In this document: piece after piece, positions 182 through 55,121 of the stretch | Layout of the letters: each line of letters starts with the position of its first letter | Position numbering within the stretch: the stretch's first letter is position 1 | NCBI GenBank assembly: GCA_964618625.1 | Contig: CAZUBI010000001.1 | Coordinates: 65,940 to 129,939 of the forward strand | Length of the DNA stretch: 64,000 bases | From: an uncultured Candidatus Saccharibacteria bacterium | Lineage (GTDB): Bacteria > Patescibacteriota > Minisyncoccia > UBA6257 | Direction of reading: 5' to 3' | Notes under the pieces: generated by a model | What the model saw: the letters and a program-made list of their open reading frames with translations, nothing else | Databases searched by the model: none | What the model was told of the DNA's origin: nothing | Translations under genes and position numbers: made by a program

Positions 182-655
182 TTATAGGGCTCCTGTTTTT
201 CGTGTTTGCTTTGTAATATTTTTTGCTTTATCGATGAAGAGTATGCCATCAAGATGATCTGCTTCATGTTGAATTACTCTGGCTAATAAACCAAAAGCTT
301 TCATCTTTATCTTTTTACCGTCAAAATTAATGGCTTTTAAGGTTATTCTTTTTGACCTTTCTACTTCACCATAAATATTTGGCAAACTTAAACAGCCTTC
401 TTCCATTACTGAAGTTTCTGGAAAAAACTTTATGATTTCAGGATTAATGAAAGTATAAAACTTATCATCTATTTCACAAATAATAATACGCGTAGGTTCT
501 CCCACCTGAATTGCCGCTAATCCCACCCCGTTATTTTGTCTTACCACCTCTTTCATCTGTTCAATCAAACTACGCACATCTGAGTCAATATGCTTCACAG
601 GAAGGCTTTTTTGCCTCAAAGTTTTATTATTTTCTCCAGTAAGTATTTCCATCAC
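182..655 (-). CDS. def: peptide deformylase
   Basis: All three PDF motifs seen in the ORF: GVGLAAIQVG, EGCLS, QHEADHLDG. Confidence 0.9.
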   Translation of the reverse strand: MMEILTGENNKTLRQKSLPVKHIDSDVRSLIEQMKEVVRQNNGVGLAAIQVGEPTRIIICEIDDKFYTFINPEIIKFFPETSVMEEGCLSLPNIYGEVERSKRITLKAINFDGKKIKMKAFGLLARVIQHEADHLDGILFIDKAKNITKQTRKTGAL

Positions 656-1800
656 AATATATTTATTGGGTCAACATCAATTTTCCAGTTTGAAGGAACG
701 AATTTTAAAATCTTATTCCTCAATGCCAATTCTTTTTTAGTTAAAATAGGTGAAAGTAAATTGAGCCCCAATAAAGGATTAATCTCTTCTTTAATTTTAC
801 TTTCAAAGTATTTATATTTTACCAGAATATTCCATTTATAAAAACCTTTTTCTTTAAAAACAAAGGCTTGCGCAGGTCCTAAAATAATAAAATCTTTCTG
901 AAGGTTCTTTGGAATTAACTTATTTATGGCTTGCTCTAAATTCCTTTTTGTTTCTTCAGCTTCTTTCACCCCCTTTTTTTGATCTTTGTCAGAAAGTGTC
1001 AATTTTATTAATTGAACATAAGGAGGCCAAAGATAATCTTTTCGCCATTTTTTTTCTTCTTGTAGGAATTTTTTTTCCTCATTGTTTATAAAACATTGGA
1101 ATAATCTATTTTCAGGAATTAATGTCTGTATTATTAATTTTTCTTTAGACAAAGCCTTCAGTTTTGAAAGATTTAAAAACACTCTTTCCTCGCTATAATA
1201 ATCTGGTAAGAAAAGTGCAGGATCAACAGAAGCCACTATTACTAAATAGGCAGCTTTTAATTGAGGATTTAAAAGAGCTTCAGTCCCTATTAATATTTTA
1301 ATATCTCCTCGATTAAATTTATCAAAAATATCTGATTTTTGTTTATCAGAAGTTTCCCCTTCGATTAACGTAAAAATAGGCGTTGGAATAATAAATCTTT
1401 TAATTTCTTCAGCAATTCTCTCAATACCAATTCCCAAGGCTTTAAGCTTATAACCCCTGCAGGAAGGACAAACTGGTGGTATAGAAACATTATAATTACA
1501 ATGATGGCAGATAAGAACCTTCGCTTCACTCAGAACCTTGTTTCTCACTTCGTTTGAAATAAGCCTAGATTTATTGTGAAACCCCAAGGGAATATCACAA
1601 TTTGGGCATTTAAATACAAAACCACATTCCTGGCATATAATGCTTGTCGCCAAGCCTTTTCTGTTAATAAAAATAATAATTCTTTTTCTTTTTTTTAGGG
1701 CTTTTTGAATTTCAATAAAAGCATCGGGAGAAATGGCTTGAAATGGTTTTTTCTCTTTTCTAACCTTTTTTAGATCAATAATTTTAATAAGAGGCATCAT
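652..1800 (-). CDS. priA: primosomal protein N' (PriA)-like, C-terminal half with Cys4 zinc-binding region
   Basis: CQECGF..CPNCD...CHHC...CPSC cysteine cluster typical of the PriA zinc-binding domain. Contiguous with upstream ORF 1784..2623 but in another frame. Confidence 0.6.
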   Translation of the reverse strand: MMPLIKIIDLKKVRKEKKPFQAISPDAFIEIQKALKKRKRIIIFINRKGLATSIICQECGFVFKCPNCDIPLGFHNKSRLISNEVRNKVLSEAKVLICHHCNYNVSIPPVCPSCRGYKLKALGIGIERIAEEIKRFIIPTPIFTLIEGETSDKQKSDIFDKFNRGDIKILIGTEALLNPQLKAAYLVIVASVDPALFLPDYYSEERVFLNLSKLKALSKEKLIIQTLIPENRLFQCFINNEEKKFLQEEKKWRKDYLWPPYVQLIKLTLSDKDQKKGVKEAEETKRNLEQAINKLIPKNLQKDFIILGPAQAFVFKEKGFYKWNILVKYKYFESKIKEEINPLLGLNLLSPILTKKELALRNKILKFVPSNWKIDVDPINIL

Positions 1801-2623
1801 AATAAATGATTGAAGAATTATAATACAAAGCTAAATAGTTAATAAGAAAAGTGGAGTTATAATAAGGTTTTTGATCCCATGATTTATAAGAATTATTGCT
1901 TCCATCCACTACAATTACAAGTCCTAAATTTTGCCAAGGCAAAAACAGAGATGAGCGCCGTCCTATAATTAATTGCGCTTCCTGAGAATTAACTTTTGTC
2001 CATAAAGAATTAAATTCTTTAATTTTTAAATCATTTGAGGAAATAAAAATTGGCGTAGAGATTTTAGATGATAATTTAGTAAAATAATAATTTTGATAGA
2101 AAATAGTCGGAACGAGAATTAACACCTGTTTTTTGTTTTTAAGATTTGCCTTTATTTTTTGAATAACATCAGAAAAATCATTGGAACCTATTTTTTCTAT
2201 TTTATCTTTTTTTGTCTTTGAAACTGATGGATCAAAATATTTTGGGAAGTCTTTTTCTAGTTTTTCTACATAATTTATTAAAGATTTTATTCGACGTGGT
2301 AAAATAATTTTCAAACACAACGAAATTGGATAAAAATAATAACGAGAGATAAAGTTTGCTAAAAGAAAAAACAGTGGCGGAACTATCTGTCTTGAAGAGA
2401 TGACTTTATTTATTGGTTTTAAAACAAAATCAGCCTTTTTTAAGGTTGCTTTTTTTGAGGACACAGACGCTGAATTCAACACTATTGCCATTACATTCCT
2501 GCGTCTTAAAGGTATTTCAACAATAGATCCTTTTATTAAATCCGACTTATAAAAATAAGAAAAAATTTGTGGTTGAGGTCTTGGAATATTAGTCAATGGA
2601 ATTACGTTAATGATAAACATCAT
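1784..2623 (-). CDS. priA: PriA-like N-terminal half (3'-DNA-binding region plus degenerate helicase core)
   Basis: KKQVLILVPTI resembles the PriA segment after Walker A, but there is no GxGKT Walker A, and the DExH box is replaced by VVDGSN. Overlaps the next ORF by 17 nt in a different frame. Confidence 0.5.
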   Translation of the reverse strand: MMFIINVIPLTNIPRPQPQIFSYFYKSDLIKGSIVEIPLRRRNVMAIVLNSASVSSKKATLKKADFVLKPINKVISSRQIVPPLFFLLANFISRYYFYPISLCLKIILPRRIKSLINYVEKLEKDFPKYFDPSVSKTKKDKIEKIGSNDFSDVIQKIKANLKNKKQVLILVPTIFYQNYYFTKLSSKISTPIFISSNDLKIKEFNSLWTKVNSQEAQLIIGRRSSLFLPWQNLGLVIVVDGSNNSYKSWDQKPYYNSTFLINYLALYYNSSIIYYDASY

Positions 2624-3177
2624 TTAAAATTTAATGTATATGTGGCTAAATCCGTATATTGTGGCCCTGAACGACTTAATTCGCTCTCTATAACAGATAT
2701 GGAATTAATTACAAAGGATTTATTAATTTTTTCTTCCAGTTCTGATAGACGCGGTGGTTTTGTTTCGTTTCTGAAGCGCGCTAAAGTAACATGGGGTTTG
2801 AATAAACGATTTTCTATTTTAAAATTTATTCCTTGATCCATTAATTCATTTTCTAATGCTTTATGAAGTTTGTCTAAATTCTTTGAAATTTCGCCTTCTG
2901 CCCAAATTAGGCGAGGGGAGTGTGGATTTGGACCATAAGTTATTTTATTTAATTTAACCTCTATTGGAAAGAACAAAGAAGCAATATTTTGACAAGCTTT
3001 ATTAATTTTTAATATATTATCATTACTAACATATCCAATAAAAATCAATGTTAAATGTAAGGCCTGCTCAGGTATAAGCCGAAAACCAAAATTGCGGAGT
3101 TTCTTTTGTTGATAATCTAAAAAAATCTTCTTAACATCATTTGACAAATGCGAAGCAATAAATATTCTATGTCCCAT
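2620..3177 (-). CDS. thpR: RNA 2',3'-cyclic phosphodiesterase (2H phosphoesterase, LigT/ThpR family)
   Basis: Two H-x-T-x motifs (HLTLIF and HVTLAR) at the expected spacing. Confidence 0.8.
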   Translation of the reverse strand: MGHRIFIASHLSNDVKKIFLDYQQKKLRNFGFRLIPEQALHLTLIFIGYVSNDNILKINKACQNIASLFFPIEVKLNKITYGPNPHSPRLIWAEGEISKNLDKLHKALENELMDQGINFKIENRLFKPHVTLARFRNETKPPRLSELEEKINKSFVINSISVIESELSRSGPQYTDLATYTLNFK

Positions 3178-3212
3178 AGCAACAAATTAATAAACTAGAT
3201 AGAAATAGAGGC

Positions 3213-3277
3213 GAGGGTAGATTGTTGAGAAAACCATAGCAATTAGCGTGTTTTTGAAACAATTACCTGGGTCTCTA
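3213..3277 (+). repeat. family-A palindromic intergenic element, copy a (core ...GAGAAAACCATAGCAATTAGCGTGTTTTTGAAAC...)
   Basis: Shares the conserved core with 8 other copies. Itself nested in an outer palindrome agatagaaatagag / ctctattctcattctatct (about 3197..3292). Confidence 0.8.
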
Positions 3278-3320
3278 TTCTCATTCTATCTTATTTCCCC
3301 TGTGATTTCCAGCTGTTAAA

Positions 3321-3387
3321 CCCCCACACCAAACGGGCACATACTCTGTTTAGTGCAAAGCACTCAGTGCTCATTATGGTGTGGGGG
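3321..3387 (+). ncRNA. candidate structured small RNA, copy 1 (P1 CCCCCACACC/GGUGUGGGGG; P2 GGGCAC/GUGCUC; P3 AGUGC-AAA-GCACU)
   Basis: Nested 3-helix hairpin. A second copy at 55016..55086 keeps the structure through compensatory changes. Confidence 0.5.
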
Positions 3388-3392
3388 TAAAA

Positions 3393-3422
3393 TTGACAAA
3401 AACAGTGTTTAAGATATATAAT
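3393..3422 (+). promoter_or_regulatory. sigma-70-like promoter (TTGACA-18-TATAAT) immediately upstream of murC; implies a leaderless or near-leaderless mRNA
   Basis: TTGACA at 3393-3398 and TATAAT at 3417-3422; ATG at 3429. Confidence 0.5.
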
Positions 3423-3428
3423 TACTAA

Positions 3429-4829
3429 ATGGCTATGAAGAAAAAGCAAATTCATTTAATCGGCATTGGAGGAGTAGGAATGACCGCTTTAGCCAATCTC
3501 TTATTAGAAAAAGGATATTCATTATCAGGCTCTGATAAAAATGATTTTGTAGCAAGAAAGATTTTAGAAAAAAAAGGAGCAAAGATATATATTGGCCACA
3601 AGGCTGATAATATAAAAAAAACAGAAATTGTAATTTATTCTTCTGCAATTCCTGTTAATAACATTGAGCTTGAAACAGCTCAAAAGATGAAAGTTCCTTT
3701 ATCGAATCGTTTTGATTTTCTGATGAATATTCTGGTTGAAAAAAAGATCATTAGCATTGCAGGAACTCATGGAAAAAGTACTACTGTAGCAATGATTGCC
3801 CATATTTTAGAAAAAGCAAAATTAAAACCAACAGTTTATTTAGGAGCTAAAAATAAAACGTATCCATTGGGAAGTAAATGGGGATCAGGAGAATATTCTG
3901 TTTTGGAAACAGATGAGCATGATAAATCGTTTTTAAAAACTCCGTTTTTTCTTTGTGTAATTACTAATGTTGATAAGGATCATTTAGATATTAATGGTCC
4001 TTATAAAGGACAATTTTCTTTATTGAAAAAAGCTTTTGAAGATTTTTCTCAAAATAATCAGTCTGGATTTATTGTTTTAAATAATGATGATTCTTTTTTA
4101 AAAAAAATAGCAAAACAAAAGAAAAGAAAATCTTTAACTTTTGGAATAAACAATAAAGCCGATCTTTTTGTCAAAAATATTGATTATAAAGGAATAAAAA
4201 CTTTTTCGGATTTATTTATAAATAATAAATTTCAAGGAAGATTAGAGCTCTCTTTGCCTGGAAAAGAAAATATCTACAATGCTTTAGGCGCTATTTCTGT
4301 TTCACAAATTCTCAATGTTCCTTTAAAAGATGCCCTGCAATATTTAAAAACCTTTACTGGTATAAAAAGAAGATTTTCCATCCTATATAATAAAGAAATT
4401 GCAATAATTGATGATTATGCGCATCATCCTACTGAAATAGAAGGTACTTTAAGAATGGCAAGAATTGTTTTTCCAAAAAGAAAAATTATATTAATTTTAG
4501 AACCTCATCGTTATTCTCGAATTTTTCTTCTGTATAAAGACTTTGCTCGAGCAATAAAGAATTGCGACATTTTATTTCTTTTACCGCTAGATTCATCTAA
4601 TGAAAAACCTATTAAAAGGATTAACAGCGAAAAAATATATAAGGAGATATTAAAAACAAAAACCTTAAGTAAAAATAAATTACATCTTGTAAAAAATGAA
4701 TCATCTTTTTTGAGAAATCTTTTCAAATTTCAAAAAGATGGTGATGTTTTCCTTTTTGCTGGTCCAGGAAAAATAGCAAATCTTCCCCCTCAATTTATTA
4801 ATTTATTGAAAAGTTATGAAAAAGAATAA
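3429..4829 (+). CDS. murC: UDP-N-acetylmuramate--L-alanine ligase (MurC-family Mur ligase)
   Basis: HLIGIGGVGMTALA N-terminal Rossmann motif and GTHGKSTT P-loop typical of MurC/Mpl. Confidence 0.8.
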   Translation: MAMKKKQIHLIGIGGVGMTALANLLLEKGYSLSGSDKNDFVARKILEKKGAKIYIGHKADNIKKTEIVIYSSAIPVNNIELETAQKMKVPLSNRFDFLMNILVEKKIISIAGTHGKSTTVAMIAHILEKAKLKPTVYLGAKNKTYPLGSKWGSGEYSVLETDEHDKSFLKTPFFLCVITNVDKDHLDINGPYKGQFSLLKKAFEDFSQNNQSGFIVLNNDDSFLKKIAKQKKRKSLTFGINNKADLFVKNIDYKGIKTFSDLFINNKFQGRLELSLPGKENIYNALGAISVSQILNVPLKDALQYLKTFTGIKRRFSILYNKEIAIIDDYAHHPTEIEGTLRMARIVFPKRKIILILEPHRYSRIFLLYKDFARAIKNCDILFLLPLDSSNEKPIKRINSEKIYKEILKTKTLSKNKLHLVKNESSFLRNLFKFQKDGDVFLFAGPGKIANLPPQFINLLKSYEKE

Positions 4830-10465: not shown

Positions 10466-10500
10466 AATTTTAATGATTAACGATTAACAAAGTAGGTAAT

Positions 10501-10567
10501 AAGGTTTAAAATGTTGTTGAGAAAACTATAGCGTTTTGCGTGTGTTTGAAACAATATTCAGAACCTT
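10501..10567 (+). repeat. family-A palindromic intergenic element, copy b
   Basis: aaggtttaaaatgttgttGAGAAAACTATAGCGTTTTGCGTGTGTTTGAAACaatattcagaacctt. Confidence 0.8.
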
Positions 10568-21643: not shown

Positions 21644-21712
21644 CTGTATTTTATTTTTTAATTTTGAAACAATAATCTAAACATCGTATCCTTGTATATA
21701 GCTTAAAGGCGA

Positions 21713-21767
21713 ATGTGATTGTTGAGAAAAACTATAGCGATTAGCGTGTTTTTGAGACAATCACATA
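21713..21767 (+). repeat. family-A palindromic intergenic element, copy c (between rpoA stop and rplQ start)
   Basis: atgtgattgttGAGAAAAACTATAGCGATTAGCGTGTTTTTGAGACaatcacat. Confidence 0.8.
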
Positions 21768-21788
21768 AACCTTTGCTATTTGTTTCTC

Positions 21789-23455: not shown

Positions 23456-23523
23456 AAGGTTCGGAAATGTTGTTGAGAAAACCATAGCGATTAGCGTGTT
23501 TTAAAACAATATTCCGAATCTTT
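23456..23523 (+). repeat. family-A palindromic intergenic element, copy d (between rpsK and rpsD)
   Basis: aaggttcggaaatgttgttGAGAAAACCATAGCGATTAGCGTGTTTTAAAACaatattccgaatcttt. Confidence 0.8.
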
Positions 23524-23524
23524 G

Positions 23525-23968
23525 CTATACTCTTCTCACCTTTGGAGGACGTGGTCCATTATGAGGCATTGGCGTTATATCTTTTATTAAAAGAATATCA
23601 AGCCCATGATTAGCTAAAGAACGAATTGCTGTTTCTCTCCCACCACCAATCCCCTTTACATAAATTTCTACAGTTTTTAATCCAATCTTCTTTGTTTTTT
23701 CCATTAAAACAGACACTACTTTTGACGCAGCAAAAGGAGTTGCCTTCTTAGGTCCCTTAAATCCTAAAGATCCGGCTGAAGACCAGGCAATAAGACCACC
23801 TTTTAGATCAGTAAGTGATACAGATGTATTATTATAGGAAGCGCGAATATAAATTCTCCCTGTTTCTAAATGTTTCTTAGAAGAGGCTTTAGCTTTAATA
23901 GAAGATGCTTTTTCTTCTATTTTACTAATATCTTCTCCGGATTTAGTAATAACTCTCTTTTTGCCCAT
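23525..23968 (-). CDS. rpsK: 30S ribosomal protein S11
   Basis: S11 core (AHIKSTFNNTIV-like region and GGRE.AIR). Confidence 0.85.
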   Translation of the reverse strand: MGKKRVITKSGEDISKIEEKASSIKAKASSKKHLETGRIYIRASYNNTSVSLTDLKGGLIAWSSAGSLGFKGPKKATPFAASKVVSVLMEKTKKIGLKTVEIYVKGIGGGRETAIRSLANHGLDILLIKDITPMPHNGPRPPKVRRV

Positions 23969-24386: not shown

Positions 24387-24425
24387 TAAATTAATTCAAT
24401 TAATTTTAAAATCTAAAGGGTGAAA

Positions 24426-24480
24426 GGTAGTTGTTGAAGAAACCATAGCGATTAGCGTGTTTATGAAACAATCATCCGAG
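24426..24480 (+). repeat. family-A palindromic intergenic element, copy e (between rpmJ and rpsM)
   Basis: ggtagttgttGAAGAAACCATAGCGATTAGCGTGTTTATGAAACaatcatccgag. Confidence 0.75.
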
Positions 24481-24482
24481 CC

Positions 24483-24596
24483 TCATCCTTGTCGCTGTTT
24501 GTGTTTAGGATTTTGACAAATAACATACACACGACCTTTTCGTCGGACTATCTTGCAATTTCTACAAATTTTTTTTACTGATGCTCTAACTTTCAT
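24483..24596 (-). CDS. rpmJ: 50S ribosomal protein L36 (37 aa; absent from the supplied ORF track)
   Basis: Hand translation: [37 protein letters not shown]. Confidence 0.85.
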
Positions 24597-34654: not shown

Positions 34655-34715
34655 ATTAATATAGTTTTTTAATTCTCAATTTTTAATATTCCAATGTATA
34701 GAGTTTGAGGCAAAG

Positions 34716-34775
34716 ATGATTGTTGAAAAAAACTGTAGCGATTAGCGTGTTTTTAAAACAATCATCTGAGCCTAA
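34716..34775 (+). repeat. family-A palindromic intergenic element, copy f
   Basis: agatgattgttGAAAAAAACTGTAGCGATTAGCGTGTTTTTAAAACaatcatctgag. Confidence 0.75.
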
Positions 34776-44596: not shown

Positions 44597-44639
44597 TTAA
44601 TAACAATTTTAATGCTTTGATTTTTAAACTGGAGTCATA

Positions 44640-44708
44640 AAAGGTTCGGAATGTTGTTGAGAGAACTATAGCGTTTAGCGTGTTTATGAAACAATATTCC
44701 GAACCTTT
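44640..44708 (+). repeat. family-A palindromic intergenic element, copy g
   Basis: aaaggttcggaatgttgttGAGAGAACTATAGCGTTTAGCGTGTTTATGAAACaatattccgaaccttt. Confidence 0.8.
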
Positions 44709-45076: not shown

Positions 45077-45097
45077 AATTTTAATATTTAAATTATT

Positions 45098-45166
45098 AAG
45101 GTTCGGGGATATTGTTGAGAAAACCGTAGCGATTAGCGTGTTTTCGAAACAATATTCTGAACCTTT
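45098..45166 (+). repeat. family-A palindromic intergenic element, copy h
   Basis: aaggttcggggatattgttGAGAAAACCGTAGCGATTAGCGTGTTTTCGAAACaatattctgaaccttt. Confidence 0.8.
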
Positions 45167-52335: not shown

Positions 52336-52350
52336 AATACTGTCATAAGA

Positions 52351-52411
52351 CGAATGGATGTTATTGAAGAAACTGTAGCGATTAGCATGTTTATGAAATA
52401 ACATCTACTCG
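52351..52411 (+). repeat. family-A palindromic intergenic element, copy i (most diverged core, TGTAGCGATTAGCATG)
   Basis: cgaatggatgttattGAAGAAACTGTAGCGATTAGCATGTTTATGAAATaacatctactcg. Confidence 0.7.
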
Positions 52412-52417
52412 TCATAA

Positions 52418-54835: not shown

Positions 54836-55015
54836 AATTAATAAAATAAATTGGTTCCAAAAAATTTTTATATCCCTTCTATTTTATCAAAAAATCGCCT
54901 CCTTGGCAATTGAAAAATATAAAAAAATGCTGTCGCTTTTCAAGATAAATAGCAAGCTATAAATCTATCTAAACGACAGCATTCTTAGTATAGCAAAGAA
55001 AAATGATTTGTCAAT

Positions 55016-55086
55016 CCCCATACCAAATGAGCACATACTTCGTATCTTAGTGCCAAAGGCACTTAGTGCTCGTTATGGTGTGGGGG
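55016..55086 (+). ncRNA. candidate structured small RNA, copy 2 (homolog of 3321..3387)
   Basis: CCCCAUACC...GGUGUGGGG outer stem with a U.G wobble where copy 1 has C-G; GAGCAC/GUGCUC; AGUGCC-AAA-GGCACU (extra G-C pair relative to copy 1). Confidence 0.5.
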
Positions 55087-55121
55087 TCAAGTCCAATTGT
55101 GAATAACTTTATGTGTAAATA

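Follow-up and report, generated by a model that had tools for sequence, protein, structure and literature searches.

The window analysed here, i.e. the whole stretch of 64,000 nucleotides, comes from an AT-rich, gene-dense CPR genome whose best named MurC relatives belong to Paceibacterota. A LigT-like gene (2620-3177, minus strand) and murC (3429-4829, plus strand) diverge in its left part, and between their divergent promoters lies a palindromic element of 67 nt. The other copy, of 72 nt, is located between a hairpin followed by a T-run and a minus-strand, promoter-like TTGACA-16-TATACT, and is antisense to every neighbouring gene. The two copies are present as an earlier, sequence-only reading had described them; their exact limits and their parts, in an orientation set by the bulged A in the right arm, are given below.

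3317..3320, no strand: left target-site duplication of copy 1, TAAA, read from the sequence
3321..3387, plus strand: copy 1 of the palindromic element, 67 nt, CCCCCACACC...GGTGTGGGGG; covariance model 93.1 bits
3321..3340, plus strand: left terminal inverted repeat of copy 1 (5' strands of the helices P1 and P2 of the earlier description), CCCCCACACCAAACGGGCAC
3352..3364, plus strand: interior mini-hairpin of copy 1 (P3), AGTGC-AAA-GCACT
3367..3387, plus strand: right terminal inverted repeat of copy 1, GTGCTCATT[A]TGGTGTGGGGG, with bulged A3376
3388..3391, no strand: right target-site duplication of copy 1, TAAA, read from the sequence
3393..3422, plus strand: murC promoter, TTGACA-18-TATAAT, 5 nt beyond copy 1; kept in relatives without the element
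54987..55014, minus strand: promoter-like TTGACA-16-(TG)TATACT, directly adjoining copy 2 and pointing away from it; conserved in the related contig L005
55011..55014, no strand: left target-site duplication of copy 2, TCAA, read from the sequence
55015..55086, plus strand: copy 2 of the palindromic element, 72 nt, TCCCCATACC...GGTGTGGGGG; covariance model 76.7 bits
55049..55063, plus strand: interior mini-hairpin of copy 2 (P3), AGTGCC-AAA-GGCACT
55087..55090, no strand: right target-site duplication of copy 2, TCAA, read from the sequence

The two copies are ~85% identical, and their similarity ends exactly at the limits of the palindrome, the flanks being unrelated; the first C of the left end has mutated to T in copy 2. 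What had been taken for two separate helices, P1 and P2, with conserved internal loops (AAAY and RUUAU) is a single 20-bp stem, continuous but for one bulged A, in which the supposed loop residues are actually paired (A-U, A-U, A-U and Y-R). Compared with shuffled sequences, both copies fold strongly on the plus strand (copy 1, -33.8 kcal/mol, z = -4.8; copy 2, -38.2 kcal/mol, z = -7.3), and folding is of similar strength on their minus strands (z = -6.5 and -5.4, respectively). Neither a full covariance-model scan of the 64-kb window with filters off nor a paired-end search allowing up to 3 mismatches per arm revealed any further copy there. Both copies lie between genes, and neither has a length divisible by 3 once the 4-bp repeat is added (67+4 and 72+4).

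The murC promoter noticed beyond copy 1 is confirmed, with its -35 box TTGACA at 3393-3398 and its -10 box TATAAT at 3417-3422, and the earlier conclusion that the element is no murC riboswitch stands with it. A leader or riboswitch of either murC or LigT was rejected on the grounds that relatives lacking the element keep the promoters; a leader of the sodium:solute symporter gene near copy 2 was likewise rejected, the region upstream of that gene in relatives not being homologous, and so was a terminator function, as no T-run follows the element hairpin in either copy. The hairpin with a T-run ~40 nt past copy 2, which had been described as a bidirectional terminator, is visible in the sequence. 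Plus-strand promoter-like sites upstream of copy 1 are sub-consensus (the strongest, 10/12, is ~150 nt away and the nearest, 9/12, at 40 nt), the scanned surroundings of copy 2 yielded none, and no promoter or flank is common to both copies. Some other features of these neighbourhoods are of interest in their own right. The -10 box of murC ends 6 nt before the ATG at 3429, an arrangement conserved in relatives, and because of this short distance the sequence suggests that the murC mRNA is leaderless or that a second ATG at 3435 is used. On the minus strand at 54918-55014, a long hairpin (AATGCTGTCG...CGACAGCATT) and a stretch of 7 T come after the TTGACA-16-(TG)TATACT site; this unit, wholly conserved in L005 despite a different downstream gene, lies upstream of the symporter gene and may represent a small RNA or an attenuator. 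Finally, PriA (652-2623, minus strand) is apparently split into two overlapping ORFs, one of 279 aa with the N-terminal 3'-DNA-binding part and one of 382 aa with the helicase and C-terminal part, and the split is identical in all relatives examined.

Does the element encode an RNA, as had been proposed? It does match no known RNA family, since Rfam 15 at gathering thresholds gives only 4 tRNAs in the window, and at E <=10 both copies yield only generic hairpins, the best sub-threshold E being >=0.2; tRNA or tmRNA identity was tested too, and the element is neither. The helices with their compensatory changes are also real and hold across relatives in an alignment of 19 sequences: pairing extends to 98.5% of its cells, both partners vary in 11 pairs, and values as high were obtained in 0 of 500 shuffles, a result that leans towards the structure because the alignment was fitted to it. 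All 5 pairs of P3 change on both sides across the family in this model-fitted alignment, and the variation lies in P3 and the inner stem: the outer 11 bp are essentially invariant and the inner 9 bp covary. Invariant ends combined with covarying inner arms is the look of paired transposon ends, and the helix covariation reflects that such an element requires its ends to pair and a hairpin to form; it is not the mark of an RNA gene. The claim that the wobble pairs are valid for the plus strand only holds in part: G.U pairs are indeed present, but copy 1 has an A.C mismatch (C3334/A3373) on that very strand, and among 31 members oriented by the bulged A the wobbles number 14 G.U and 11 A.C (the latter corresponding to G.U on the minus strand), so that neither strand is favoured. 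The interiors of 18 of these 31 members fold clearly better than shuffles (z below -2), and most of the 31 contain a hairpin of 4-7 bp, usually G+C-rich and most often with a 3-nt loop (UUC, AAA, GAA), which stands on either side of an A/T-rich stretch. End recognition by a transposase does not explain why this triloop hairpin is kept, which makes it the main unexplained feature; it hints at a further role that depends on the hairpin, be it in single-stranded DNA or in RNA, and those copies that are transcribed may exert a secondary effect at the RNA level.

Pattern scans of genomes and metagenomes revised the idea of a two-copy element, in that both loci proved to be members of a large dispersed family. 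Species-representative genomes, scanned with a pattern for the right half of the element (20 positions with 19 specified bases and one N), contained 11 true matches in 5 CPR assemblies, all labelled Saccharibacteria or Paceibacterota, with 5, 3 and 2 copies in three of them; some of these matches form tandem arrays and one copy is nested, and 3 further matches in GC-rich actinomycetes arose by chance. Two 10-nt ends placed 40-70 nt apart matched at least 120 loci in metagenome contigs, mostly in contigs with a flank GC median of 39%, with about 16 of the 119 scored matches being GC-rich look-alikes. Members share the ends CCCCCACACC(A)...(T)GGTGTGGGGG, which belong to terminal inverted repeats of ~20 bp whose outer 10-12 bp are invariant (CCCCCACACCA...TGGTGTGGGGG), and enclose short, very diverse interiors, in which a single G+C-rich mini-hairpin, closed by a 3-nt loop, usually accompanies an A/T-rich stretch. 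Lengths range from 27 to ~110 nt without any transposase ORF, and the minimal members (27-38 nt) are nothing but the two ends. These ends occur almost solely as left-right pairs 27-110 nt apart, solitary ends being rare in ~1 Mb of fetched loci, and the idea of a DNA-uptake sequence was rejected for the reason that they are almost never single. A public assembly contig (Logan, L015) breaks off inside copy 2, as is expected of a repeat.

Look-alikes of two kinds were set apart from this family. Six viral-contig matches to the two-end pattern, which might have spoken for phage-borne spread, were judged not to belong to it: 0 of them have direct-repeat flanks, all have ends extended by C/G runs, and three lie in GC-rich loci. 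In addition, an unrelated GC-rich repeat, CCCCCACACCGGGAGAGGG...CTCCCGGTGTGGGGG, was seen in L043, L056, L067, L081, L089, L091, L126 and L131; it has 10-nt ends in common with the CPR element by chance or convergence, is flanked by inverted and not direct repeats, and is probably a different palindromic family from other phyla.

Directly outside the C5/G5 ends of the CPR element, a 4-bp direct repeat of variable sequence is found. It is perfect (4/4) in 72 of 143 elements, GC-rich look-alike matches included, when shuffled pairing of the flanks would lead one to expect 9.3 (maximum 18 in 2000 shuffles); shifted flank registers give only 0-1 perfect repeats, and 9 result if the flanks are read as inverted repeats. 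When split by GC, perfect duplications amount to 60/103 in low-GC contigs vs 2/16 in GC-rich ones. Only about half of the duplications are perfect, which counts against a mobile element. The reconstructed insertion target is dyad-symmetric, RG|YWWR|CY, a preference that persists with tandem arrays removed and that also accounts for arrays with a common 4-nt spacer. An outward TTGACN, resembling a -35 box and often followed by a plausible -10, has its first base right at the element end in 13 of 280 flanks, and at almost all other offsets in no more than 2. Both window copies have an outward TTGACA 0-5 nt from the element (55009-55014 for copy 2, 3393-3398 for copy 1), and the left duplication of copy 2, TCAA, represents on the minus strand the first four bases of such a box. 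Insertions appear to land in, or survive in, -35 hexamers, apparently because the hexamer is restored by the TTGA duplication.

Comparison of relatives provided both filled and empty sites. The spacer between LigT and murC is free of the element in L016, L017, L018 and L020, which have the same synteny and 80-85% MurC identity; conserved flanks, ATTTCCAGCT and TAAAATTGACA..., surround their empty site, and a single TAAA precedes ATTGACA. This empty site is imperfect, as ~12 nt differ on its left side, which counts against the insertion. L157 and L159, whose MurC clusters with that of the window at >=90% identity, carry copy 1 at the same site, with uncompensated point changes such as a C-G pair turned into a C.A mismatch. 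The insertion of copy 1 would accordingly be younger than the split from the relatives at 80-85% MurC identity and older than that from the >=90% ones; the covariance model found no copy in ~190 kb from relatives L016-L030. For copy 2, L005 contains a probable ortholog with the same right-hand promoter and leader, in whose loop a second element with a TAAA duplication is nested, at a place where the window has a single TAAG. Insertion of copy 2 would thus predate the split from the L005 genome; a precise empty site for it was sought in metagenomes with a 24-mer across the reconstructed site, and no match was obtained. A further case is offered by L075, which is syntenic with the window (tRNA-Val, rplL/rplJ-like minus-strand ORFs recognised by eye only, tRNA-Thr, iscS, tRNA-Gly): its iscS has, at codon 6, a 74-nt member with a TCTA repeat that keeps the frame, and the iscS start of the window is empty (MKRIYLDYAATTP). 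Insertion polymorphism between relatives and several copies per genome are both characteristic of transposable elements of the miniature inverted-repeat type (MITEs).

The same L075 contig displays a peculiar arrangement at 2166-2273, where tRNA-Thr(CGU) is flanked by CCCCCACACC/GGTGTGGGGG ends in a unit of 108 nt with no flanking repeat. Around it (2100-2330) lie what appear to be two halves of another tRNA-like sequence, with a further tRNA fragment nearby, and the whole is either an element with tRNA cargo or a rearrangement hotspot. A similar tRNA-Thr(UGU) is situated between CCCCCCCACC/GGTGGGGGGG repeats in L102 (7737-7836).

Other members reside within genes. Crude ORF calling placed 41 of 153 elements within long ORFs, and in ten hosts checked with Pfam (RecJ, SMC, PheT, IscS, LepA, GatB, MraY, HtrA, G6PD and peptidase U32) the domains continue on both sides of the insert (in-gene loci L099, L148, L132, L122, L111, L012, L138, L095, L115, L050 and L075). 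The inserts add 22-29 aa, which read ...PHT(K)...GVGV... or ...PPH...CGG...; alignment of IscS with the protein from the window displays a clean 24-aa insert just before the SSHK motif. Of 103 elements from low-GC contigs, 62 have a length that, with 4 added, is divisible by 3 (p = 2e-8), and a stop-free PHT frame was observed 111 times vs 68 with shuffled interiors.

Taken together, 4-bp duplications, nested and tandem copies, and filled and empty sites are insertion behaviour, and both loci are therefore very probably intergenic copies of a non-autonomous, MITE-like transposable element, the CPR palindromic element. A DNA-level element is precisely what the sequence-only reading had named as an outcome that would argue against a functional RNA, and it is what the terminal inverted repeats, the duplications and the filled and empty sites revealed. 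How might such an element move? A transposase, presumably supplied in trans, would recognise the invariant ends, make 4-bp staggered cuts at the symmetric RG|YWWR|CY target and insert the element there, the 4 bp being duplicated in the process to TAAA at copy 1 and TCAA at copy 2. It counts against this reading that no transposase-bearing full-length element with these ends occurred in ~1 Mb of fetched CPR DNA; end pairs 130-5000 nt apart with matching flanks were only tandem or composite artefacts. Both copies would have landed just upstream of -35 boxes and left the promoters intact, and they are most likely selfish and near-neutral.

The mobilising enzyme would presumably be of the DDE type; the length of the duplication, 4 bp, and the C-rich tips allow a guess, by analogy, at an enzyme similar to those of IS1380/piggyBac or IS5/IS701. 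DDE transposons of the IS1380/piggyBac and IS5/IS701 groups make 4-bp duplications, with tips CCC...GGG in piggyBac and CC... in IS1380, and the piggyBac target, TTAA, is of the T..A type, AT-rich and symmetric. The 4-bp duplication, C-rich tips and AT-rich symmetric target of the CPR element resemble these features and provide a lead only, given that its target is looser than that of piggyBac-type transposons (YWWR, including CTTG and CAAG) and that no gene for such a transposase was found beside the ends.

Among known systems, bacterial MITEs come closest in type. They are small and dispersed, with terminal inverted repeats, short duplications, stable hairpins and no transposase coding, and occasionally form in-frame ORF fusions (PMC10969869). 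These traits, known from the Correia/NEMIS elements of Neisseria, RUP of pneumococcus, ERIC, Nezha and the QMITEs of Coxiella, are also present in the CPR element, the window copies of which have a size of 67/72 nt without a transposase ORF, terminal inverted repeats and a fixed 4-bp duplication. It differs from them in being very short (27-110 nt), with minimal members that are just two ends, and from IS630-derived elements, which duplicate TA, in its 4-bp YWWR duplication. In contrast to MITEs, moreover, its ends are invariant across many divergent genomes, its interiors are diverse and modular, and no parent insertion sequence was found; that the interiors are far more diverse than in a typical single-parent insertion-sequence family counts against the MITE reading. 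Rickettsia palindromic elements (RPEs) lie in frame within unrelated housekeeping genes, PheT included (PMC1779305; PMC10969869), and the CPR family resembles them through its in-frame members in RecJ, SMC, PheT, IscS, LepA, GatB and MraY. Such in-frame palindromes in unrelated genes are a property of the family and not of the two window copies, which are intergenic with lengths that do not preserve a frame. Unlike RPEs, which measure 100-150 bp, the CPR elements have 60-85 nt with clear terminal inverted repeats and 4-bp duplications, and their hosts are CPR/Patescibacteria, not Rickettsiales; the CPR element is hence an analogue of RPEs set apart by host and size, not a member. A full-text literature search, end sequence included, found no description of such elements in CPR bacteria. 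The family is apparently undescribed there, i.e. a known type (MITE) with RPE-like behaviour in a new lineage. The wider notion, of an undescribed CPR/Patescibacteria superfamily of coding-competent palindromic mobile elements with CCCCCACACC ends, a piggyBac-like 4-bp YWWR duplication, in-frame members in essential enzymes and possibly tRNA cargo, stands at about an even chance of being right.

Could the hairpins nonetheless represent a family of small structured RNA genes, in which the outer stem of a plus-strand transcript would form a protein-binding platform below a variable interior? The strong fold, helices kept with changes on both sides and an interior hairpin in most of the 31 members are what such genes would display, and without an Rfam match the family would be new; the idea is nevertheless very improbable. 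An independent small-RNA gene would be expected to have its own conserved promoter and terminator and a consistent strand, none of which was found: no promoter or terminator is common to the copies, similarity stops at the palindrome, copy 1 sits between divergent promoters and copy 2 is antisense to its neighbours. The wobbles have no strand bias, folding is as good on the minus strand, the outer stem has an invariant sequence instead of covarying, and duplications, nested or tandem copies, filled and empty sites and in-frame members within genes speak against an RNA gene. Even harder to sustain, with hardly any probability left to it, is a cis-regulatory or structural element (an insulator, UP-element substitute, terminator or protein site) selected at both sites for the sake of murC/LigT and the symporter gene. 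Both copies do lie 0-5 nt upstream of an outward TTGACA -35 box, and the exact coincidence of TTGACN with the element end in 13/280 flanks fits this idea as well, but the conserved murC promoter evidently works without the element in relatives, the hairpin lacks the T-run of a terminator, and the genes next to the copies are unrelated. The YWWR target preference, plus the survival of those insertions that leave the -35 box intact, explains the TTGA|CA association.

A somewhat better case, still improbable, can be made for REP/BIME-like palindromes, i.e. single-stranded DNA hairpins handled by a single genome-encoded transposase of the RAYT type (IS200/IS605-like Y1). Like REPs and BIMEs, the CPR elements are short palindromes with no transposase inside the repeat, their tandem mosaics of alternating subtypes resemble BIMEs, and no autonomous copy between these ends was found. 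The hairpin shape is kept beyond the invariant ends, and the interior loops are mostly of 3 nt, as in GCGAAGC or GCAAAGC, the GCGAAGC type being a DNA mini-hairpin of exceptional stability. Y1 transposases and REPs are not known to leave a target-site duplication, however, and the precise 4-bp duplication at a symmetric target is the strongest signal here. Furthermore, REPs are 20-40 nt long and strictly extragenic, whereas CPR elements also occur inside genes, and no asymmetry of orientation or strand was seen. These differences favour the non-autonomous, MITE-like transposable element.

The window contains a second, unrelated hairpin repeat family with 9 copies in its 64 kb, all in one orientation and all intergenic.

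3205-3274: copy 1 of the second hairpin family
10497-10566: copy 2 of the second hairpin family
21703-21772: copy 3 of the second hairpin family
23459-23525: copy 4 of the second hairpin family
24414-24483: copy 5 of the second hairpin family
34704-34773: copy 6 of the second hairpin family
44637-44706: copy 7 of the second hairpin family
45095-45164: copy 8 of the second hairpin family
52350-52415: copy 9 of the second hairpin family

Its outer stem of ~17 bp covaries, its loop of ~30 nt is strongly conserved (GAGAAAACYATAGCGATTAGCGTGTTT), and 7 of the 9 copies lie 0-17 nt past the stop of a minus-strand gene; Rfam gave no match. One copy, folded on both strands, reached -30.6 kcal/mol on the plus strand (antisense to the genes) vs -20.4 kcal/mol on the minus strand. 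The copy at 3205-3274 is missing from L157/L159 and from L016-L020, so that insertion polymorphism is seen in this family as well; L007 and L157 contain one copy each. As a candidate for a structured RNA or a mobile hairpin, the family may surpass the two-copy element.

For annotation, these findings mean that the hairpins of the CPR palindromic element should be masked as repeats and not called as small RNAs, that they break assemblies, and that the 22-29-aa inserts in conserved proteins could be mistaken for lineage-specific domains. The invariant 10-12-bp ends offer a handle both for a search for the enzyme and for strain-level tracking of insertions in metagenomes, and the symmetric 4-bp target, combined with landing in -35 boxes that stay intact, provides a model of insertion survival in compact genomes. 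Tiny CPR genomes are expected to purge selfish DNA, and yet they harbour an abundant family that is apparently still moving and is tolerated in essential genes, in parallel with the RPEs of Rickettsia. If the superfamily reading is true, selfish palindromes would have colonised proteins of a reduced-genome symbiont in a second, independent instance, the CPR elements being mobilised by an enzyme that is possibly not encoded by an insertion sequence.
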